Source of the DNA: an uncultured Gammaproteobacteria bacterium
Lineage (GTDB): Bacteria > Patescibacteriota > Microgenomatia > Daviesbacterales > UBA10151
Direction of reading: 5' to 3'
DNA length: 64,000 nucleotides
Assembly (NCBI GenBank): GCA_964406775.1
Contig: CAYOSW010000005.1
Span: forward strand, 1,362 to 65,361
The position numbers and the translations under genes were made by a program. Position 1 is the first letter of the stretch. Every line of letters begins with the position of its first letter. The notes under the pieces were generated by a model. It was not told the origin of the DNA. It made no database searches and was given only the letters and a program-made list of their open reading frames with translations. Positions 2,915-26,005 of the stretch are shown piece by piece.

Positions 2915-4243
2915 CTATGAAAGGAATTTATCGTAGTTTTTCTCAATCATTTTGCTTTCAAACTGCTTGGCAGTATCTAAAATTACCGAAACCACGATCA
3001 AAAGAGATGTTCCTCCGACAACTAAAGTTGAGATTCCGGTAAAGGAGGAGATTACCGAAGGCATAACCGCAATTGTTCCCAGGAATATCGCACCGGCCAA
3101 AGTTATCCTTACCAGGATGTAGTTTAAATACGAGGCCGTTGCACTGCCCGGTCTGATACCCGGAACAAACCCACCGTATTTTTTAATTTCGTCTGCAATC
3201 TTGGTCGGATTAAAAACTACCGCAGTATAAAAATAAGTAAATCCGATAACCAAAAGGAAATAGGTAAGGTTATATGCTATTGATTCCGGCTGGAAGTTCT
3301 GCACCAAAAATCTGCCGATATTTTGCAGAACCGGAACAGGGGACTGGGCTAAAAACTGACTCCCGAAAGAGGGGAGCAGTACTAAGGAAATTGCAAAAAT
3401 AATCGGAATAACACCGGTTTGGTTAACGCGCAGAGGCAGGTATGTTTGGACCTGGCTCATTCTCCGGCCGGCCGAAAAACGCCTGGCGTAATGAATCTGG
3501 ATTTGTCTGCGTCCTTCGTTAATAAATACAATTGCTGCGGTTACGAGCAATCCGACTGCTACAAAAATTAGAATATTTAAAAGTTGGGACTGCTCTACAA
3601 TTGATACAGTCTGGAATAAAACAACCGGCGCTCTTGCCAAAATACCGACTAAAATCAAAATGGAAATACCGTTGCCGATTCCGTACTCGGTTAAAAGCTC
3701 ACCCAGCCACATTGTAAACACCGTACCTGCAACCATAGCAACAATGATTGAAAGAATCGCCAAAGGAGTTCCGGCCTCAACCAGACCCTGATTTTTCAAA
3801 AGCGTATACATACCGACCGACTGAATAACTGCCAAAGGAATCGTCAGGAACCGGGTATATTGATTAATCTTCTGACGGCCCATCTCCCCTTCTTTGCTCA
3901 TTTCTTCAAGCTTCGGGAAAACCATAGTTAAAAGCTGCATAATAATCGAGGCGTTAATATACGGATTCAAACCGAGCGCCAAAACGGAAAAGTTAGTTAA
4001 GGTTCCTCCGGAAAAAATATCCAAAAGCCCGAGGAGCTGGTTACTGCCGAAAAGCTGACGGATGCCTTCAACATTAATACCCGCAATCGGGATCTGTGCT
4101 GACAGACGGAAAACAAAAATGATAATGGCGGTAATGATTAATTTGCGGCGGAGCTCCGGAATTTTTAAGGCATTTAATATCGGTTGAATTAAACTAGCCA
4201 ACTTTGCCTCCTGCAGTTTCGATCTTTTCTTTGACCTTCGCAC
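2915..4243 (-). CDS. secY: preprotein translocase subunit SecY
   Basis: 442 aa polytopic membrane ORF located between rplO and adk. Confidence 0.93.
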
Positions 4244-16957: not shown

Positions 16958-19099
16958 TTAACTTTCAACTCTTCCGGTAAATCCGGAATCAGCAATAACT
17001 TTTTGAGTGATATTTGAAGGAACGGGCTCGTAATGTGATGGTTCAATATATGCTGTTGCTCTTCCCTGGGACATTGAACGGATAGCGGTAATATAGCCAG
17101 AAAGTTCAGCCAAAGGAACGAAGGCGTTGATAACAGTTGCATTTCCCCTCTTTTCGGTTCCCTGGATCTGGGCTCTTTTTGAGGATAAGTCTCCGATTAA
17201 ATCTCCCATAAATTCATCAGGAGTTGAAACCTCAACCTTCATTATCGGCTCAAGGAGAATCAAACCTGCTTTTTTGGCAGCTTCGGAAAGTCCTAAGGAA
17301 CCGGCAATCTTAAAGGCCATTTCCGAAGAATCAACATCGTGGAATGATCCGTCGTAAACCGTAACTTTAATATCCACAACCGGGAATCCTGCAAGCAGTC
17401 CGGTATCTTCTTTTTCTTCAACACCCTTACCGATAGGCGCAATGAATTCTTTCGGAATAGCTCCTCCGACGATTTCGGAAACGAATTCACGTCCGGTTCC
17501 TCTCGGGAGAGGCTCAATTCTGAGTAAACAGTGACCGTACTGACCGCGTCCTCCGGTTTGGCGCACATACTTACCTTCTCCTGTTGCCGGAAGAGTTATT
17601 GTTTCTTTATAGGCAACCTGAGGATCTCCGACGTTGGCTTCAACTTTAAATTCCCTCTTCATACGGTCAACGATAATTTCCAAATGAAGCTCACCCATTC
17701 CGGAAATTATTGTCTGTCCGGTTTCAGGGTTGGCTTTAACTCTGAAAGTCGGATCTTCTTCTGCCAGTCTTTGCAGAGCGAGTCCTAATTTTTCCTGATC
17801 GGATTTGGTTTTAGGCTCTATTGCAAGTGAGATAACGGGTTCTGCAAAGTTGATCGATTCCAAAACTAACGGATTTCCTTCATCAACAATTGAATCTCCG
17901 GTAATTGTATCTTTAAGACCCACAACCGCAACGATTTCTCCAGCATATGCTTCATCAATTTCTTCACGGTCGTTGGCGTGCATTAAAAGCACCCGGCCAA
18001 TACGTTCTTTGATTTGTTTTGTAGAATTGTAAATAGTTGATCCGGCTTTTAATGTTCCGGAATAAACTCTGACATAAGTTAAACGGCCGACGTGAGGATC
18101 AATCTGAATTTTAAAAGCGAGAGCCCCGAGAGGTGCATCTTTTGTGTTTGACTGAGTTACTTCTTCTCCTGTTTGGGAATTTTTACCCTTAACGTTCGGG
18201 ATATCAAGAGGTGAAGGTAAAAATTCCATAACCGCATCGAGCATTGGTTGCACACCTTTATTGCGCAGTGATGAGCCTGCCATAACCGGAACGATCTTTT
18301 TAGCGATAACTGCAGCTCTTAACGCTTTTTTAAGCTCATCGATTGAGATCTCTTCACCGTTTAAGTATTTCTCGAGCAGAACCTCGTCAGTTGAGGCAAT
18401 CTCCTCAACTAATTTCTCGCGGTGTTTTTTAACTTCATCAACCATATCGGCCGGAATGGGCTGTTCCTCAAATTTAGCGCCGGTCTGATCACCGAGCCAA
18501 ATCCAAGCCTTTTCGGTTAAAAGATCAACTATCCCTTTGAAATCGTTTTCAACACCAATAGGTAAGTTATAAGGAAGAGCATTCGCACCCAGGCGGTCAC
18601 GGGCGGATTGGATAGTTCCCAAAAAGTCAGCGCCTAAAACATCCATTTTATTGGAGAAGGCAATCAAAGGTACACCGTATTTATCTGCCTGTCTCCAGAC
18701 AGTTTCGGTTTGGGACTGAACACCTGAAGCCGAATCAAGAACTATGACTCCCCCGTCAAGCACACGAAGCGAACGCTCAACCTCAACTGTAAAGTCAACG
18801 TGACCGGGAGTATCGATTAAGTTAATCCGGAATTCTTCATCTTTGAAAGGACCGGATTTGGGAGTCCAGAAAGTGGTAACAGCTGCGGATACGATAGTAA
18901 TACCGCGCTCGCGCTCCTGTTCCATCCAATCGGTGGTGGTTGTACCTTCATCAATATCACCGATCTTATAAGTACGTCCGGTATAAAAAAGAATACGTTC
19001 GGTGGTAGTAGTTTTTCCCGCATCAATGTGGGCAATGATCCCGATATTTCTGATACGGTCTAACGGAAAATCGCGTTTTGTTTTCGTTGTAACTGCCAT
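16958..19099 (-). CDS. fusA: elongation factor G
   Basis: 713 aa ORF with [20 protein letters not shown] and NKMD motifs and the EF-G domain IV/V region. Confidence 0.97.
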
Positions 19100-19138
19100 A
19101 GCGAGATATTCTACCTTGAAGCGGAGATAAAAACAAGG

Positions 19139-19399
19139 CTAAGATTGATGAGCTGTAGAATTCTCCGGATTACCCTCAAGATCTTTGAGTATTTTCTTGG
19201 TTTCGCCGATACGGGCGGATAGAACTTCCCCCTGTTCCGTCAGCATCTGATAGGCTGCATTCTCGCTATTATCGCCCATATCCGTAGCGTCGCCTCTTTG
19301 TTCCATAATTGAGGCATACTCCTTCTCAAGAGTTGCGAGCTTCTCGCTCCACATTTTTACTTTTTCTTGCTTTATCTTATTGTTTGCCATAAAACACAA
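19139..19399 (-). CDS. stand-alone GreA/GreB N-terminal coiled-coil domain protein (mini-Gre)
   Basis: 86 aa ORF carrying the Gre finger-tip motif GDNSENAAY (compare canonical GDLSENAEY) within a predicted coiled coil. There is no C-terminal FKBP-like domain. The true start is probably MANNKIKQ. Confidence 0.6.
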   Translation of the reverse strand: MCFMANNKIKQEKVKMWSEKLATLEKEYASIMEQRGDATDMGDNSENAAYQMLTEQGEVLSARIGETKKILKDLEGNPENSTAHQS

Positions 19400-19527
19400 A
19401 GCCCCCTTGAGATTAATTCTTGGGGGTATTTGATGGTTACATACTAAAAAAGATTTCCGGAAATGTCAAACCTTAAGAGAACGATTGAATCCCTCTATAT
19501 CTGCTGTGCGTGTGGTAAAATTGCCGA

Positions 19528-20826
19528 ATGGAATTTGAGGTAATTGAACAAACTTATCCTGAAAACTTCCGCTCGGACATAACGCGCGAGCTCGGCGACC
19601 ATATTAACAAACGCCACAGCATCGTCTTTATAGGTATGCGCAGGGTCGGCATATCTAATTTCTTAAGGTTTTTTCTGTATCACAAACAACTCCGCCAAAA
19701 AACTTCGGCAGACAAACACCTCCTTATCGCCATCGATTTAAACGATCTTATCGAACGGACTATTCCTTCTTTTTGGGTATTAACGTTAAAGAGAGTTCTT
19801 GATACCGTCGAAGGGTCCGATTTTGCCCCTAAAACTAAAAAATATATCGAGAATCTATTTCTTGACGGTATCCAGTCCAAAAATACTTTTCTTCTTATAG
19901 AAAATATTAAAAAAGCTCTAAGTAAAATTATTTCCGAAGGTGTTTTCCCGACAATTTTTTTCATCCGGTTTGACAGGATTTCCGAATCCGCAACAGCCGA
20001 TTTTCTGGCAAATCTCGAAGGACTTAAAAGCTCAACCCACGGCAAGTTAAGCTATGTGTTCACAACTTCGCGCGGATTAAACTCCATCTCGCCAAAAGTC
20101 TTCTCGCACACTTCTCTTTCTCTTGCCGAAACGGAGATATTTTTAAAACCGGCAAGCCCGGAAGATCTTCAGGTAATTTGCGATGCCTATATCAAGAGAT
20201 TCGGGCTCCGGATTTCCGCGGAAACGGAGAAAGAATTAATTAAGCTTACCGGAGGCTACGTCCAATACCTCCAGCTGGCTCTAATTACCTTAAACGAGCC
20301 TGAGGTGAATAATAAAAAAATCAGTAATCTGTCCGAACTCTTAGAAAACGACGAGCGGATCAAACTTCAATCGGAAGAACTTTGGGAAGGCCTTACCGGA
20401 GATGAACAGGAAATCCTGCTTAAAGTTGTTGAGGGTGAAAAACTTACGGAAAAAGATTTAAAAGACAATAAATATTTATCAGACAGCGGATTTATGGTTA
20501 AACTCAAAAACGGCTTCAATATTTTCAGTCCGCTTTTTGAAAAGTTCCTGAAGAAAAAAGCCGAAAAAGGGGAGGGGAGTAACGGGAAAATCGATCTCTC
20601 CAAAAAAGAGCATCTGCTATTTTCCTTCCTTAAAGACAATTTAGGTGAGATTTGTGAGCGGGAAGCCATAATTGAGGCCGTCTGGCCGGAAGAGGAGGCT
20701 TTAGGGGTCTCTGATTGGGCAATTGACCGCCTTGTCGCCCGCCTGCGCAAAAAGATTAAGGATGAAGGCGAATTTGAAATAGTAACAATAAAAACCCGGG
20801 GATTTAAATTAATAGGAAAAAATTAA
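19528..20826 (+). CDS. STAND/AAA-like NTPase with degenerate P-loop fused to a C-terminal OmpR/PhoB-type winged-helix DNA-binding domain
   Basis: 432 aa ORF. The N-terminal region has IVFIGMRRVGISNF, which fits GxxxxGxS with Ile in the Lys position, and a Walker B-like LLIAIDLND. The C-terminus (EREAIIEAVWPEE...DWAIDRLVARLRKKIKDEG.FEIVTIKTRGFKLIG) matches the trans_reg_C wHTH. Confidence 0.55.
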   Translation: MEFEVIEQTYPENFRSDITRELGDHINKRHSIVFIGMRRVGISNFLRFFLYHKQLRQKTSADKHLLIAIDLNDLIERTIPSFWVLTLKRVLDTVEGSDFAPKTKKYIENLFLDGIQSKNTFLLIENIKKALSKIISEGVFPTIFFIRFDRISESATADFLANLEGLKSSTHGKLSYVFTTSRGLNSISPKVFSHTSLSLAETEIFLKPASPEDLQVICDAYIKRFGLRISAETEKELIKLTGGYVQYLQLALITLNEPEVNNKKISNLSELLENDERIKLQSEELWEGLTGDEQEILLKVVEGEKLTEKDLKDNKYLSDSGFMVKLKNGFNIFSPLFEKFLKKKAEKGEGSNGKIDLSKKEHLLFSFLKDNLGEICEREAIIEAVWPEEEALGVSDWAIDRLVARLRKKIKDEGEFEIVTIKTRGFKLIGKN

Positions 20827-21161
20827 CTGTAATTTCTGGTTCTGTCCAGATATGGCGCTTCTTTCCAATCGTGACTTATTCTTCTTCCTGAAAAGCTGGA
20901 GTCTGTAGCTACAGATAAACTTCTGAAATGGTGGCCGTCAGCACCGTGCTCACGTTCTATACCATCTTCATCAGGATATTTGTCTCCATAGTCAGCCCAA
21001 ACAGTCACGGCAGTTTTAGCCAGTTCCGCCGGCTCATCCCAATTTATTTTCGCTCCGTAGGGTAAAACCTCAAAACCTAAACCTTTAGGCTTCAAATGGT
21101 GAAACCTTTCTCTTGTAGTTCTTCGTTCTGTCCCGGGTCTGCCTGCGATATGTTCTTTCAT
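20823..21161 (-). CDS. hypothetical protein (His/Asp/Gly-rich)
   Basis: 112 aa ORF in a relatively GC-rich segment. No recognisable motif. First gene after the rpsG 3' remnant. Confidence 0.35.
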   Translation of the reverse strand: MKEHIAGRPGTERRTTRERFHHLKPKGLGFEVLPYGAKINWDEPAELAKTAVTVWADYGDKYPDEDGIEREHGADGHHFRSLSVATDSSFSGRRISHDWKEAPYLDRTRNYS

Positions 21162-21197
21162 AAGAATTTTGGGTTTTTGTTGGCGGAAGTTTCTGCA

Positions 21198-21225
21198 CCT
21201 ACCATCTAAAGTGGGCGCAGGCCTT
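21198..21225 (-). repeat. diverged duplicate of the rpsG 3' terminus (last 8 codons plus stop)
   Basis: The minus strand reads AAG GCC TGC GCC CAC TTT AGA TGG TAG, encoding KACAHFRW*. The true rpsG end at 21291-21317 reads AAG GCT TTT GCG CAT TTT AGA TGG TAA, encoding KAFAHFRW*. That is 19 of 27 nt identical, and most of the differences fall at third-codon positions. Confidence 0.5.
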
Positions 21226-21290
21226 AAAAGATTGTAGTTCTACAAGACGACGATCATTGTAGAAGCGAAAATCTCGCAAGGCTTTGCGCT

Positions 21291-21764
21291 TTACCATCTA
21301 AAATGCGCAAAAGCCTTATTGGCTTCAGCCATTCTGAGAGTATCTTCTTTCTTCTTTGCTGCGTACCCCTTGCCTTCTGCAGCGTCCATCAATTCCTGGG
21401 CTAATTTTAAGTGGAATCCGTGGAATTCTTTATTTGATTTAGCGCGGGCACCGGCGATTATCCAGCGGATCGCCAAAGATTCTTTTCTTTCTCCTCTGAC
21501 TTCAACGGGAACCTGGTAAGAGGCTCCTCCAACCCTTCTCGGACGGACTTCCATCTTCGGAGCAACGGTTGCAAGAGCGGTATCCAAAACAACCAAAGGT
21601 TTTTTGCCTGTTTTTTCGATTTGTTCGAGTGCATCATAAACCAATCTTTGTGCGGTAGTTTTTTTACCGTCACGCATTATTCTATTGATAATTTTGGTTA
21701 TAATTTTGGATCCGTAAATCGGATCTGCCTGAATTATTCTTTTCGGTGCTTTACCTGATCTCAT
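21291..21764 (-). CDS. rpsG: 30S ribosomal protein S7
   Basis: 157 aa ORF with S7 family motifs (PVVEVRPRRVGGASYQVPVEV). Immediately downstream of rpsL. Confidence 0.95.
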   Translation of the reverse strand: MRSGKAPKRIIQADPIYGSKIITKIINRIMRDGKKTTAQRLVYDALEQIEKTGKKPLVVLDTALATVAPKMEVRPRRVGGASYQVPVEVRGERKESLAIRWIIAGARAKSNKEFHGFHLKLAQELMDAAEGKGYAAKKKEDTLRMAEANKAFAHFRW

Positions 21765-22207
21765 TAGCTTGCAGCTGCGGTCTTAGGACCTGCGACTGCT
21801 CCCCCTTTCTTCTGGCCGTATTTGCTTCTGGATGTCTTTCTCTTTGCAACTCCGGACAAATCGAACTTACCGCGGATTAAATGATATTTAACTCCGGGCA
21901 AATCCTTAACTCTTCCTCCACGGACCAAAACGATACCGTGCTCTGCTAAATCGTGACCTTCACCCATAATATAAGCTGTAACTTCGGTTCTGTTGGACAA
22001 TCTGACCCTCGCTACTTTACGTAAAGCCGAATTAGGTTTTTTCGGAGTCATTGTTCTAACCAAAGTAACAACTCCCCTTTTCTGAGGGTTAAAGTTAGTA
22101 ACATATTTACGGTCTTTTGCATTATAAGAGCGTCTCAGGGCTGTCGCCTTGATTTTTCTTGCTGACGTCTTACGTCCTTTTCGTACTAATTGATTAATTG
22201 TTGGCAT
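21764..22207 (-). CDS. rpsL: 30S ribosomal protein S12
   Basis: 147 aa [16 protein letters not shown]-terminus, the [10 protein letters not shown] loop and the [13 protein letters not shown] motif. Confidence 0.95.
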
Positions 22208-22318
22208 CTCTGTTTTTTTATATTCCGGGAGAAAGAATCAAAAGATTACACGAAGTAAAATTTAAATTCCTTCATCCCTAACCGGGATTACTCTAATCCG
22301 GAAATCCGGACCAGTAAT

Positions 22319-25300
22319 TTAGGATGGTTCCATTGCGGCCCGTTCAGGGCTTGTTGGAATCAACCGGCCAATAATAACATTTTCTTTCAGTCCAATCAAC
22401 TTGTCGATCTTACCTGAAGCTGCTGCTTCCGAAAGAACTGTTGTTGTTTCAACGAATGAAGCTGCTGACAGGAAGCTTTCGGTCTGGAGTGAAGCTCTGG
22501 TTATACCCAAAACGATTACTCCTGCAGTTGCCGGCTCTCCGCCCTCTGCCAAGACTCTGGTGTTCTCTTCTTCGAATCTGGTTTTATTTACAACTTCTCC
22601 GGGCAATAATACTGTATCGCCTTGAGATTCGATTCTGACTTTATCACTCATCTTGCGGACGATAATTTCAAAGTGCTTTTCATTAATATGCACACCCTGG
22701 GATTCGTAAACTTCTTTAGCTGCGTCAACAATGTATCTTTGAGCTTCTTTAAGTCCTTTTACTCTTAAGACTTCTTTAATATCCAAATGTCCTGCGGCAA
22801 GTTGAGTTCCTGCGGAAATCAACTGACCGTCTTCAACCAAGAGATCTGCTGTGATCGGAATTGCATATTCCCTTTCTTCGTGAGGCTTGGTTGTGGTTCT
22901 GACCCTGATAACTCTTCCTGTTTCGGTGTTAGAGATAGTAACTTTTCCGGCAATTTCCGAAATCGGGCTGGTTGATTTTGGAGTTCTGGCCTCAAAAAGT
23001 TCTTCAACACGGGGCAAACCTTGTGTAATATCGATACCGACAACTCCTCCTGAGTGGAAAGTACGCATTGTGAGCTGTGTACCGGGCTCTCCGATAGCCT
23101 GAGCTGCAACAACTCCGACAGGTGTTCCGAGACCTACCGGTTTTCTGGATGACAGATCAAGACCATAGCAGGCTGCACAAATTCCATATCTTGCTTCGCA
23201 GGTAAGAGGAGCGCGCACTAAAACTTCAGTAACTTCACTCTTGTAAATTGCTTCTACTTCCGGCTCTTCAAGATAAATTCCATCCGGAAGAAGCTGTTTT
23301 TTAGTTTTCGGATCTACAACTTTTCCGAGCAACTTGCGTCCCAGGAATCTGGTTGAATTTGATGCCGGATTATCGTGAATAACTTCAACAGGGAATCCGT
23401 TTTGGGTTCCGCAGTCCTCAATTCTGACGATCATATCGTGGGATACATCTACCAATCTTCTGGTCAGATATCCTGCATCGGCGGTTCTGATAGCACGGTC
23501 TGCAACTCCCTTTCTCGCTCCTCTACAGGAAGTGAAGTACTCGAACACTCCGAGTCCTTCACGGTAGTTGGATTTTGTAGGAAGTTCCACGATTTTACCT
23601 GTCGGATCAACTGAGAATCCTCTCATTCCGGCAGTTTGCGCGATCTGAGCTGTAGTTGCACGGGCTCCTCCGGACTGCATAATGATCTGGATAGGATTAT
23701 CAGGATCGATTGCCGCAAATGTTTTTCTGACAATTTCGTCTCCAATTCTGGTCCAGACTTCCTGGGAAAGAGCGCGTTTTTCTTCGCTGGTAATGATTTC
23801 CTTTTTAAAGTTATCTTCAATATCGGCAATTTCTTTATCACCCTTAGCAATTAAGGATTTCTTCTCAGGGATAATTTTGTTGTCAAAAATACCGACTGAA
23901 AGTCCGGAAATTGTTGCGCCCCAGAAACCGAATTCTTTAATATCGTCAATCAGTTGAGCAACTTCATCTTTGGTGAAGGCTTTAAATGCCTGCATTATGA
24001 TTCTTGAGATAACTCCGGCGTTAATTGTTTCGTTGATAAAGCGGAGTGATTCAGGCAGGAAGTTGTTAAAAATAATTCTTCCGACTGTTGTTTCGATAAT
24101 TGCATCGCCGATTTTAGCTTTAATCGGAGCTCTTAAATCAAGATTTGCTGTTTGGAATGCAAATTCGGCTTCTTCTCTTGAGTAAACCTTATCGGTAAGC
24201 ACTTTTGTCTTATCAATCGAAGTTACGAAGTAAGAACCCAATGCCATTTCACGGTTAGGAACGTTGATAGGTGATGAATTCGCAGGGCGCAGAATGTTTT
24301 CTTTTGCCATCATCAGATTTTTAGCTTCTTCTTTGGCTTTTTCGGACAAAGGTACGTGAACAGCCATTTGGTCTCCGTCAAAGTCGGCATTAAATCCGGC
24401 ACAGATACAAGGGTGAATCTGGATTGCGTTTCCGTCAATTAAGATCGGGAAGAATGCCTGAATACCTAATCTGTGCAGGGTAGGCGCACGGTTGATCAGA
24501 ACCGGGTGATCTTTGATAACTTCTTCCAAAATATCCCAAACCTCCGGAGGTCTGAATTCCAAAACATTTTTAGCTCCTTTTACGTTTGAAGCCAGGCCTC
24601 TTGAGATAACTTCGCGCAGTACGAAAGGCTTAAACATCTCAAGCGCCATTTCTTTAGGAAGTCCGACCTGAGCCAATTTAAGTTTAGGACCGACGATAAT
24701 AACCGAACGTCCTGAGTAATCTACCCTTTTTCCGAGCAAATTCTGTCTGAATCTTCCCTGTTTTCCTCTCAACATCTCGGAAAGTGATCTTAACTGGTGG
24801 GTTCCGGCTCTTCTGGTTGTTCTGGATGAAGAATCGATTAATGAATCGACTGCTTCCTGAAGCATTCTTTTCTCGTTTCTTAAAATAATTTCAGGAGCAC
24901 CGAGATCAATAAGTCTTTTCAAACGGTTATTTCTGTTGATAACTCTTCTGTAGAGATCGTTTAAGTCCGAAGTTGCAAATCTTCCTCCCGGTAATTGCAC
25001 CATAGGGCGCAAGTCAGGCGGGAGAACAGGCAATATTGTCAAAACCATTGAAGCCGGAGAAATTGTTGATTTTCTCATTCCTTCAACGAGTCTTAATCTT
25101 TTAGTGGCTTTGATATGGCGCTGACCTGAAGATTTTGAAACCTCGACTCTAAGCTCTGAAGCTAATTTATCCAGATCAATCTTATTTAATACCTCAAGCA
25201 ATGCTTCAGCTCCCATCTTAACTTCAAGGAAGTCTGCAACTCCGTACTCATCAAGTTTGAAGTATTCATCCTCCGAAAGAAGTTTCATCGGATTAATATT

Positions 25301-26005
25301 TTTAACCAATTCGGAAACTGTTTTGTAAATTTCCTCAAGCTGAGCGAGCTCTACCTGGTTTTGTTCTTTGAGCTGAGCAATTTTTCTTCTTGCTTCGATT
25401 TGGAATTCGGCAGCCTGGAGCTCGAATTTCTCGTCATTGCCGATTTTCTTCTTAAGTTCTTTTAATTCTCCGGTAGTTACGTCTTCCGCTTCCTTGATTG
25501 TTTTTTCCAAAGCTTCTTTTGAAGCGTCCTGTTTTTCGCCGAGCTGTTTTTCAAGTTTTTCGATAGCTTCAGCTTTTTTATCAGTATCAATTCCGGTAAC
25601 CAGGTATGAAGCAAAGTAAATTATTGCCTCAAGATTCTTCATAGTTAAATCAAGAATCAGGGATAATTTGCTCGGCGCACCTTTAACAAACCAGATATGG
25701 GCCACAGGCGAAGCTAAAGTAATATGACCCATTCTCTCGCGTCTTACTTTGGATTGTGTGACCTCAACTCCGCACTTGTCGCAGATAACACCACGGTAAC
25801 GGATTCTTTTATATTTTCCGCAGTAACATTCCCAATCCTTTGTCGGGCCGAAAATATTTTCAGCAAATAATCCGTCTTTTTCAGCTTTCAAAGTCCGGTA
25901 ATTAATTGTTTCCGGGCGTGTAACCTCACCGAATGACCAGCTTCTGATAATATCGGGTGAAGCGATAGCTACTTTAAGTTGATCAAAATCGAGTAAATTA
26001 TTCAT
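22319..26005 (-). CDS. rpoC: DNA-directed RNA polymerase subunit beta'
   Basis: 1228 aa ORF with the N-terminal zinc finger (CYCGKYKRIRYRGVICDKCGVEV), the NADFDGDQM catalytic loop and the trigger-loop region. Confidence 0.97.
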   Translation of the reverse strand: MNNLLDFDQLKVAIASPDIIRSWSFGEVTRPETINYRTLKAEKDGLFAENIFGPTKDWECYCGKYKRIRYRGVICDKCGVEVTQSKVRRERMGHITLASPVAHIWFVKGAPSKLSLILDLTMKNLEAIIYFASYLVTGIDTDKKAEAIEKLEKQLGEKQDASKEALEKTIKEAEDVTTGELKELKKKIGNDEKFELQAAEFQIEARRKIAQLKEQNQVELAQLEEIYKTVSELVKNINPMKLLSEDEYFKLDEYGVADFLEVKMGAEALLEVLNKIDLDKLASELRVEVSKSSGQRHIKATKRLRLVEGMRKSTISPASMVLTILPVLPPDLRPMVQLPGGRFATSDLNDLYRRVINRNNRLKRLIDLGAPEIILRNEKRMLQEAVDSLIDSSSRTTRRAGTHQLRSLSEMLRGKQGRFRQNLLGKRVDYSGRSVIIVGPKLKLAQVGLPKEMALEMFKPFVLREVISRGLASNVKGAKNVLEFRPPEVWDILEEVIKDHPVLINRAPTLHRLGIQAFFPILIDGNAIQIHPCICAGFNADFDGDQMAVHVPLSEKAKEEAKNLMMAKENILRPANSSPINVPNREMALGSYFVTSIDKTKVLTDKVYSREEAEFAFQTANLDLRAPIKAKIGDAIIETTVGRIIFNNFLPESLRFINETINAGVISRIIMQAFKAFTKDEVAQLIDDIKEFGFWGATISGLSVGIFDNKIIPEKKSLIAKGDKEIADIEDNFKKEIITSEEKRALSQEVWTRIGDEIVRKTFAAIDPDNPIQIIMQSGGARATTAQIAQTAGMRGFSVDPTGKIVELPTKSNYREGLGVFEYFTSCRGARKGVADRAIRTADAGYLTRRLVDVSHDMIVRIEDCGTQNGFPVEVIHDNPASNSTRFLGRKLLGKVVDPKTKKQLLPDGIYLEEPEVEAIYKSEVTEVLVRAPLTCEARYGICAACYGLDLSSRKPVGLGTPVGVVAAQAIGEPGTQLTMRTFHSGGVVGIDITQGLPRVEELFEARTPKSTSPISEIAGKVTISNTETGRVIRVRTTTKPHEEREYAIPITADLLVEDGQLISAGTQLAAGHLDIKEVLRVKGLKEAQRYIVDAAKEVYESQGVHINEKHFEIIVRKMSDKVRIESQGDTVLLPGEVVNKTRFEEENTRVLAEGGEPATAGVIVLGITRASLQTESFLSAASFVETTTVLSEAAASGKIDKLIGLKENVIIGRLIPTSPERAAMEPS

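Follow-up and report, generated by a model that had tools for sequence, protein, structure and literature searches.

A displaced rpsG 3' end downstream of the intact gene in a relative of Candidatus Daviesbacteria: a probable scar of short-homology recombination

The DNA analysed here, referred to below as the window, is a stretch of 64,000 nucleotides (nt) from contig CAYOSW010000005.1 (GenBank assembly GCA_964406775.1), and its nearest named genomes are those of Candidatus Daviesbacteria (Patescibacteria, candidate phyla radiation). The window contains an intact rpsG gene, encoding ribosomal protein uS7 (S7), which is followed by a second, out-of-gene copy of its own 3' end (Table 1). The starts of the in-gene or proximal copy (c1) and of the out-of-gene or distal copy (c2, the relic) are 92 nt apart, and a 65-nt spacer lies between the copies. 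A duplicate of the rpsG end located 65 nt past the stop codon had been reported in a preliminary description of the region; the duplicate is real, far beyond chance and present in other assemblies, although it starts at 21199 and not at 21198, and a recount gives an identity of 21 of 27 nt instead of 19 of 27. The differences are mostly synonymous, as had been stated: four of the six fall at synonymous third codon positions or in the stop codon, and the other two share a codon (TTT to TGC). The short repeats noted earlier in the spacer (TTGTAG/CTACAA, and ATTGTAG twice) are also present and form the arms of a long imperfect hairpin. The end of the spacer reads …CAATCTTTT or, equally, …ACTACAATCTTTT, and c1 starts with AAGGCT… (in its longer form, AAGGCTTTTGCG); the window string TGGTAAAGCGCAAAGCCTTGCGAGATTTTCGCTTCTACAATGATCG (c1/spacer) runs into AAGGCC… of the relic. 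The 32-codon open reading frame (ORF) that overlaps the rpsG stop codon is probably spurious.

Table 1. Features of the rpsG region and its neighbourhood in the window (aa, amino acids; kcal/mol and z values refer to predicted folds)
Feature	Position	Strand	Remarks
rpsG (ribosomal protein uS7)	21291..21764	minus	157 aa, intact; PF00177 E = 4e-56
Imported (proximal) rpsG 3' end, c1, (T)AAGGCTTTTGCGCATTTTAGATGGTAA	21291..21318	minus	encodes KAFAHFRW and stop
Imported post-stop flank, the 65-nt spacer	21226..21290	minus	missing from empty-site strains L001, L153 and L156
Displaced native rpsG 3' end, relic c2, AAGGCCTGCGCCCACTTTAGATGGTAG	21199..21225	minus	encodes KACAHFRW and stop
Native rpsG-ORF112 intergenic spacer, 37 nt	21162..21198	minus	colinear with L001 6475..6511
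Hairpin A, encloses the functional stop codon, arms AAGGCTTTTGCGC / GCGCAAAGCCTT	21277..21318	minus	-17.7 kcal/mol, z = -3.25
Hairpin B, long imperfect spacer hairpin, 3' arm is AAGGC of the relic	21221..21282	minus	-21.0 kcal/mol, z = -3.6
Hairpin C, around the old stop codon, 3' arm is the first bases of the native intergenic spacer	21193..21220	minus	-14.9 kcal/mol, compared with -9.9 in L001
32-aa ORF, MVKRKALRDFRFYNDRRLVELQSFKACAHFRW	21199..21297	minus	ATG overlapping the rpsG stop, without Shine-Dalgarno sequence, not conserved in L157/L169
rpoC	22319..26005	minus	
rpsL	21764..22207	minus	
ORF112	20823..21161	minus	no Pfam family; adjoins rpsG in sister species
ORF432, Trans_reg_C domain	19528..20826	opposite to rpsG	
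ORF86, GreA_N-like	19139..19399	minus	
fusA	16958..19099	minus	

The similarity of the two copies is well above chance by each of the measures applied. A match of at least 21 of 27 nt within 300 nt downstream was found for one of 3000 random 27-mers of the window; a degenerate pattern for AHFRW and stop has exact matches at the c1 and c2 sites only in the 64-kb window; and among the 71 window ORFs of at least 100 aa, rpsG is the sole one whose last 30 nt recur within 400 nt (22 of 30, the next best being 19 of 30). That the repeat is short (27 nt) and its source metagenomic would speak for a chance resemblance or for an assembly chimera, yet the probability of either is negligible in view of these statistics and of the occurrence of the same junctions in contigs of six other samples of diverse origin (assemblies of Logan and of JGI). 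An assembly artefact is therefore excluded; moreover, the junction between the spacer and the relic has no overlap of k-mer length able to mislead a de Bruijn graph.

Haplotypes of the locus were gathered by looking up the exact S7 protein in public assemblies, and three of them, H0, H1 and H2, were distinguished, among which S7 is identical (collected loci are designated by L and a number). In H0 (L001, L153 and L156) there is a single rpsG end, …AACAAGGCCTTTGCCCACTTTAGATGGTAG (also …GCCTTTGCCCACTTTAGATGGTAG), followed by a 37-nt spacer and ORF112. H1 comprises, besides the window, six contigs from six samples, at least four of which span all 92 nt: the segment is whole in L004, L005, L162 and L163, and partial in L164 and L165. 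In H2 (L002 and L003), a 215-aa ORF replaces the 37-nt spacer. The three haplotypes differ among closely related strains, and the H0 and H2 samples have adjacent run accessions. The source samples are SRR13076554/555/504/505/588, DRR685535, SRR23702475/486, SRR8893623 and SRR22388106.

The relic c2 matches the functional rpsG end of L001 at 25 of 27 positions, and the 37-nt spacer and ORF112 come after it just as they follow rpsG in L001, hence c2 is the original gene end. The proximal copy and the 65-nt spacer are absent from L001, L153 and L156. Five differences specific to the window haplotype, relative to the conspecific L001 and L002, are located within the last 28 nt of rpsG, whereas elsewhere such differences amount to ~1% over 10.6 kb. 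These results show that the distal copy is native, and that the functional in-gene end together with the 65-nt spacer constitutes a 92-nt insertion. The preliminary description was right in assigning the two copies to different rpsG alleles, the distal one being of the L001 type and the proximal one imported, and in proposing that foreign DNA entered by recombination at the conserved rpsG 3' end; its polarity, in which the out-of-gene copy was taken as non-native, has to be reversed. Two other histories were rejected. L001 is not a deletion derivative of the window type, because it has AAC and GCC where a hybrid of c1 on the left and c2 on the right would have AAT and GCT. A tandem duplication with later divergence is incompatible with the unrelated flanks of the two copies, and with a divergence of 22% where strains differ by 1-3%.

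The last 12 nt of rpsG in H2 (TTCCGCTGGTAG) match the L151 end (…TTCCGCTGGTAG), and a homologue of the 215-aa ORF follows rpsG in L151; as a junction lacking a duplication, H2 agrees with the same displacement picture. A 215-250-aa ORF of no Pfam family is located between rpsG and ORF112 in L002 (5262-5909; H2), L151 (2955-3707) and L166 (2381-3103), and is absent from the window.

Segment 21139..21790 is identical to the window in all H1 contigs. L004 differs from the window by ~3% in rpsL and rpoC despite this identity, therefore the segment moved between strains recently by homologous recombination. In this respect the relic serves as a directional marker of gene flow between strains, and one that may be described as datable.

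Homologues in L006, L157 and L169, which are related Candidatus Daviesbacteria lineages, show that the patch is foreign. Over its first ~32 nt, the spacer has homology to what natively follows the rpsG stop codon in L006, with a 13-nt exact match at the same offset, and a small hairpin (CACAAG/CTTGTG in the window spacer, CGCAA/TTGCG in L006) displays a compensatory change. L157 represents a sister species (rpsG 88.8% identical to that of the window at the nucleotide level, S12 protein identical) and carries three stacked rpsG ends, designated c1, c2 and c3 as in the window. Its c1 and the following 48 nt correspond to the native rpsG end of the L151 lineage and to what comes after the stop codon there; this newest patch spans about -40 to +48 and is joined at an AAG microhomology, and the last ~40 nt of L157 rpsG follow L151 at all informative sites, while the remainder of the gene follows the window lineage. 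L157 c2 agrees with window c1 at 24 of 27 positions and is followed by a homologue of the window spacer (seg2), and L157 c3 is a decayed copy of the L006 type. The order c1, spacer, c2 of the window is colinear with c2, seg2, c3 of L157, the junction between spacer and relic included, and the distal copies are species-specific. In L169, the start of the spacer is related to that of the window, and the relic again starts with the lysine codon, at a distance of 27 nt from the end of the stop codon. The spacer had no match in viral contigs. A repeated element similar to a miniature inverted-repeat transposable element was rejected, as neither the spacer nor the mini-insert of L030/L034 described below occurs anywhere else in the window or in the collected loci.

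The same architecture is found in another lineage, the S7 of which is ~53% identical to that of the window. Several inserts are bounded there by rpsG-end repeats of 33-44 nt: a mini-insert of 58-60 nt in L030, L100 and L034, a GNAT acetyltransferase gene in L034, a 137-aa ORF in L037 and a ~120-aa ORF in L098. Three rpsG ends are stacked in L034, as in L157; the window has one relic only. L030 and L034 have the mini-insert and both junctions in common, but their distal copies are different, coding-intact and each similar to the functional end of another lineage. In L037, rpsG is 98.8% identical to that of the conspecific L040 over its first 420 nt and 81% over the last 36 nt.

A scan of 1454 distinct ORF ends from the collected sequences gave 11 matches of at least 26 of 36 nt, compared with none in the control; two of them (L124, L140) are of low complexity, and the rest are on rpsG, rpoC and the RNase J gene. 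The rpoC scar was observed in L004, L086, L148 and L007, and relics that are decaying or partly deleted in L087 and L151. In L004 (2000-2180), a replaced rpoC end is followed by a hairpin spacer of ~60-65 nt and then by the native rpoC end (54 of 57 nt), and spacers homologous to it, with relics, are present in L086, L148 and L007. The last 52 nt of L004 rpoC differ from the window at 16 positions, nearly all of them synonymous, and the foreign tract starts exactly at the start of the duplicate, with the bases AATGTT shared at the junction; the window is the empty site for this scar (22208..22375). In L026 and L035, the RNase J gene lies downstream of rpsG on the minus strand. Its final 36 nt (…TRPLVLPVVIEV and stop) are found again further downstream, at 717 nt in L026 (33 of 36) and at 869 nt in L035 (26 of 36). 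These copies lie outside long ORFs, and are therefore relics of a third conserved gene flanking inserts of ~0.7-0.9 kb. As the architecture also surrounds single-gene cassettes, it offers a testable route of gene acquisition for small genomes lacking classical mobile elements.

A separate observation concerns the rpoC relics themselves. In L004 (2118-2180), L148 (~1434-1496) and L007 (~3330-3391), GAGG/GAGA-AATG precedes the rpoC relic and provides an ATG in frame, giving a mini-ORF of 19-20 aa, M(I/F)IGRLIPTS… and stop, that copies the RpoC C-terminus; L086 has ACG in place of ATG. This may be a coincidence or an upstream ORF before rpsL.

From these results, we consider it likely that the feature is a scar of "3'-end displacement", which originated by short-homology or illegitimate recombination and was later spread by homologous recombination. 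According to this explanation, a short DNA fragment of a related Candidatus Daviesbacteria lineage would have been joined into the resident rpsG ~27-28 nt before the stop codon, bringing the last ~28 nt or more of the donor rpsG, its stop codon and a post-stop hairpin region of ~65 nt. The incoming piece would supply the functional gene end and leave the S7 protein unchanged, and the last 27 nt of the resident gene, its stop codon and the native downstream sequence would be shifted 92 nt downstream, where a non-coding relic remains. The left join may have formed by pairing inside conserved rpsG codons, and the right one illegitimately at a microhomology, AAGGC at the end of donor hairpin B being the same as AAGGC of codons K149-A150. 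Once formed, the new end and the spacer would be flanked by rpsG sequence on both sides, and ordinary homologous recombination could therefore transfer copies of them to naive genomes, the rpsG body serving as the left arm and the relic, paired with the recipient's own rpsG end, as the right arm. Such pairing of the relic would therefore make the cassette and its junction common to several lineages and the distal copy always of the recipient type. The DNA would probably have been taken up by natural transformation. Short-homology or illegitimate origin is favoured because no mobility genes were found in or beside the inserts examined, units of 58-92 nt are too small for autonomous elements, three unrelated genes are affected and short stretches of bases are shared at the junctions: AAG in L157, for which the donor type L151 is known, AATGTT in L004 and, judging from hairpin B, AAGGC in the window.

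An alternative is that the repeats are scars similar to attL and attR, left by a recombinase encoded elsewhere that inserts small cassettes, each with a replacement end, at an att site in the final ~30-40 nt of rpsG. Several observations would agree with such a mechanism: the single-gene cassettes of L034, L037 and L098 are flanked by direct repeats of the gene end, junctions are identical in independent lineages, and relic boundaries cluster at -27 to -44; there are also known cases of integrative elements residing at the 3' ends of genes for ribosomal proteins (PMC4701971, PMC5357655). However, when the ORFs inside and beside the inserts of the window, L002, L034, L037, L100 and L147 were scanned with Pfam, no integrase (tyrosine or serine recombinase), transposase or reverse transcriptase was revealed: no ORF of the 92-nt insert matched a Pfam family, and the cassettes elsewhere encode a GNAT acetyltransferase or proteins of no Pfam family. 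In addition, a unit of 58-92 nt is too short for a double-stranded circular substrate, the scars at the unrelated sequences of rpoC and the RNase J gene argue against one att site, and the foreign bases of the window begin at or before the left edge of the repeat. We regard site-specific insertion as unlikely, and the element targeting the rpsG end that was suggested in the preliminary description is not supported, given that no recombinase gene was found in the insert, or in or beside the cassettes of other lineages, and that the rpoC and RNase J gene ends are involved as well.

Still less probable, in our opinion, is a homing-like repair of double-strand breaks, in which a nuclease cuts the rpsG 3' end, and one-ended invasion from a diverged resistant allele combined with end joining duplicates the sequence 3' of the cut. 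In L147, the S7 of which is 91% identical, a 288-aa ORF (573-1439) with a zinc finger and a DUF559/Vsr-like nuclease domain directly follows rpsG, and may be a free-standing homing-type endonuclease; synonymous changes cluster right beside the insertion, as in the co-conversion tracts of intron-less homing, and the relic starts are clustered as well. Against this, no nuclease gene is present in the patches of the window, L157, L169, L030, L034 and L004, the relic boundaries vary from event to event (27, 33, 42, 44 and 55 nt), and three unrelated genes are affected. A diversity-generating retroelement was rejected: at the six mismatched positions, one copy has C, G, C, C, C, G and the other T, T, T, G, T, A, hence the mismatches are not adenine-specific. 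No reverse-transcriptase-like ORF was found between rpsG and fusA.

The 141-nt region as a whole is predicted to fold with -50.9 kcal/mol (z = -4.25). Hairpins A and B compete for GCCTT, and GCCUU of the spacer is predicted to pair with AAGGC of either copy. Hairpin C is strengthened by the TTT-to-TGC change of the relic and a nearby A-to-C change, both at paired positions. Hairpins enclosing the stop codon were also predicted in L157 (-19 kcal/mol, z = -4.4), L030 (-14.2, z = -5.0), L034 (-12.7, z = -3.0) and at rpoC of L004 (-9.4 kcal/mol), and the arms of the L030 and L034 hairpins differ by compensatory changes. An Rfam search of the spacer gave no known RNA family, and neither a promoter nor a canonical or intrinsic terminator was found in it. 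Across rpsG ends, pairing that spans the stop codon is not enriched over a control in which post-stop sequences were swapped between loci, and a stop-enclosing hairpin as a general property of rpsG ends was rejected on this ground. Readthrough or frameshifting into the relic was likewise rejected, since the frame of the relic is not consistent, being +2 in the window, 0 for both L030 and L157, and +1 for L034, and since L030 and L034 have intervening stop codons.

Such folding raises the possibility that the arrangement is kept as a functional RNA element and the relic retained by selection, either as a 3' stabiliser, processing site or insulator of rpsG/ORF112, or as a switch, with AAGGC of the gene end and AAGGC of the relic as alternative pairing partners of GCCUU. 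The strong predicted structure of the region, the gain of hairpin C from -9.9 to -14.9 kcal/mol, the compensation between L030 and L034 in hairpins of a kind seen at each imported end, and the identity of the H1 segment in otherwise diverged strains are in line with it. Nevertheless, the conspecific H0 and H2 strains do without the arrangement, relics are decayed or deleted in L028, L087, L151 and L157 (c3), neither an Rfam family nor a canonical terminator was recognised, and stop-spanning pairing is not generally enriched at rpsG ends. Selection on RNA would moreover account for the retention of the arrangement and not for its origin. We find this explanation very improbable. Any function of the hairpins is one that we would infer from predicted folds.

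Displacement by short-homology recombination remains the preferred explanation, although several observations weigh against it. Contig look-ups, together with a scan of one metagenome and of one genome, brought up only the partial homologues in L006, L157 and L169, and no lineage with c1 and the full 65-nt spacer as native sequence; because the donor was not found, the right-hand AAGGC microhomology is deduced and not observed. The relic starts are clustered: four Daviesbacteria relics start at -27, and those of the other lineage between -33 and -44, a grouping not obviously expected of random illegitimate joins. We attribute the clustering to inheritance of junctions, limits of detection and instability of long repeats; a preferred site of cleavage or recombination would also fit. 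In L004, L157 and L037, the left crossover is very near the boundary of the repeat, which is unusual for RecA-mediated exchange with long arms. Finally, a stop-enclosing hairpin is predicted at every imported end (z from -1.8 to -5.0), and could hint at mechanism or selection. Taken together, the clustered starts and the hairpin data would still allow for a preferred site of breakage or recombination, or for selection acting on RNA structure. A far-reaching proposal may be formulated, namely that conserved operon-terminal genes of Patescibacteria (rpsG, rpoC, the RNase J gene) have portable attachment sites in their last 27-60 nt, that any DNA between two copies is a cassette insertable, across species, into other genomes with the gene and without a recombinase encoded by the element, and that the stop-enclosing hairpin is the functional or mechanistic core. 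We consider this proposal doubtful; if true, it would represent a general, recombinase-free way of gene capture by minimal genomes, integron-like in outcome.

As regards the surroundings of rpsG, the order ORF112, ORF432, GreA_N-like ORF and fusA is kept in the sister species L145 and L146. The 2.2-kb block between rpsG and fusA is syntenic in L145, L146, L151 and L166 (sister species with S7 86-92% identical) and was rejected as an inserted island, hence the foreign island implied by the preliminary description is not a recent one. Neither a third copy of the rpsG end nor a copy of the fusA 5' end or start was found near fusA (19100..19140), where the preliminary description had proposed to look for a matching scar. 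ORF112 is ~7-10% different between H1 and H0/H2 strains (20868..21181, and also the stretch 19500..20868), compared with ~2% for rpsG and less for rpoC; the rpsG 3' end is therefore the border between a homogenised core block and a far more divergent downstream block. Between the rpoC stop codon and rpsL (22262..22318, minus strand), the window contains a structured module composed of ACUGG, hairpin 1, UUAGAGUAAUC, hairpin 2 and GAUGAAGGA, which is conserved in 11 Daviesbacteria-like lineages, shows compensatory changes at 7 of 15 predicted pairs and has no Rfam match; it could be a leader of the rpsL operon or a terminator module of rpoBC. An ORF of 124-128 aa and no Pfam family is located between rpoC and rpsL in L157 (209-595), L160 (151-537) and L148 (1607-1981). 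L157 also carries a 125-nt AT-rich insert between rpsL and rpsG (1039-1162), where the window has overlapping stop and start codons.

The scar is a recombination product of a known kind, with similar scars at other core genes, and not a new genetic system. It indicates that short patches are exchanged between lineages even in the essential, conserved genes of streamlined Candidatus Daviesbacteria and their relatives, and that the 3' edge of a conserved gene is a place where such exchanges resolve. For annotation, neither the relic nor the 32-aa ORF should be called a gene, and the duplicate should not be taken for a misassembly.

Among known systems, integrative and conjugative or mobilizable elements of streptococci integrate site-specifically in the 3' ends of rpsI, rplL and rpmG (PMC4701971, PMC5357655). 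As in the window, the 3' end of the gene is restored there and a direct repeat of it stands at the far border; those elements, however, are kilobases long and have their own integrase, whereas the window insert measures 92 nt and no recombinase was found. Arrays of the staphylococcal cassette chromosome at rlmH are a further precedent for integration at a gene 3' end.

Short-patch double illegitimate recombination was reported to occur in natural transformation (bioRxiv 10.1101/2023.11.22.568220). Homology-facilitated (references in PMC5361080) and short-patch illegitimate events would resemble the one proposed here in combining a junction placed in homologous sequence with another placed at 3-6 nt of microhomology; in both, patches measure 60-140 nt, and clustered substitutions are combined with an indel. 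They differ in that the outcome here is a duplicated recipient sequence; besides, the route proposed here is read from sequence. Duplication of recipient sequence is not known as the usual outcome of such illegitimate events.

Insertion with long target duplication (Furuta et al. 2010, PMC2853133; the earlier Helicobacter pylori report is its reference 37) likewise places DNA free of mobility genes between direct repeats that align to a single copy at the empty site, represented here by L001, L153 and L156. Its repeats are tens of base pairs long and may overlap the 3' end of a gene, and most cases are in naturally competent bacteria; natural competence in Patescibacteria has been described (PMC10633639). 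Unlike our locus, the known cases carry restriction-modification genes and have near-identical repeats (e.g. 44/46), whereas c1 and c2 differ at synonymous sites (21/27) because the proximal copy was imported with the insert. With 27-28 nt, the window repeat also falls under the 30-bp criterion of that study, and related loci have 33-57 nt.

In Rhs C-terminal displacement (Jackson et al. 2009, PMC2935791), as well as in CdiA and in effector-immunity arrays of type VI secretion (Kirchberger et al. 2017, PMC5361080), an acquired 3' end replaces the resident one, which shifts downstream and persists, and repeated events build stacks comparable to the three ends of L157 and L034. The mechanisms proposed there are homologous recombination in the conserved body together with circular intermediates, as in the Rhs model, or homology-facilitated illegitimate recombination, as proposed for the effector-immunity arrays, and none involves an integrase. 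In contrast to these systems, the gene affected here is an essential ribosomal protein gene (elsewhere rpoC or the RNase J gene), the old and new ends code for the same amino acids without diversification (KAFAHFRW compared with KACAHFRW; S7 identical in H0, H1 and H2), the displaced piece measures only 27-57 nt, and the window cassette is gene-free. The step by which the scar would have spread is close both to the circular-intermediate model of Rhs displacement (PMC2935791) and to insertion with long target duplication (PMC2853133).

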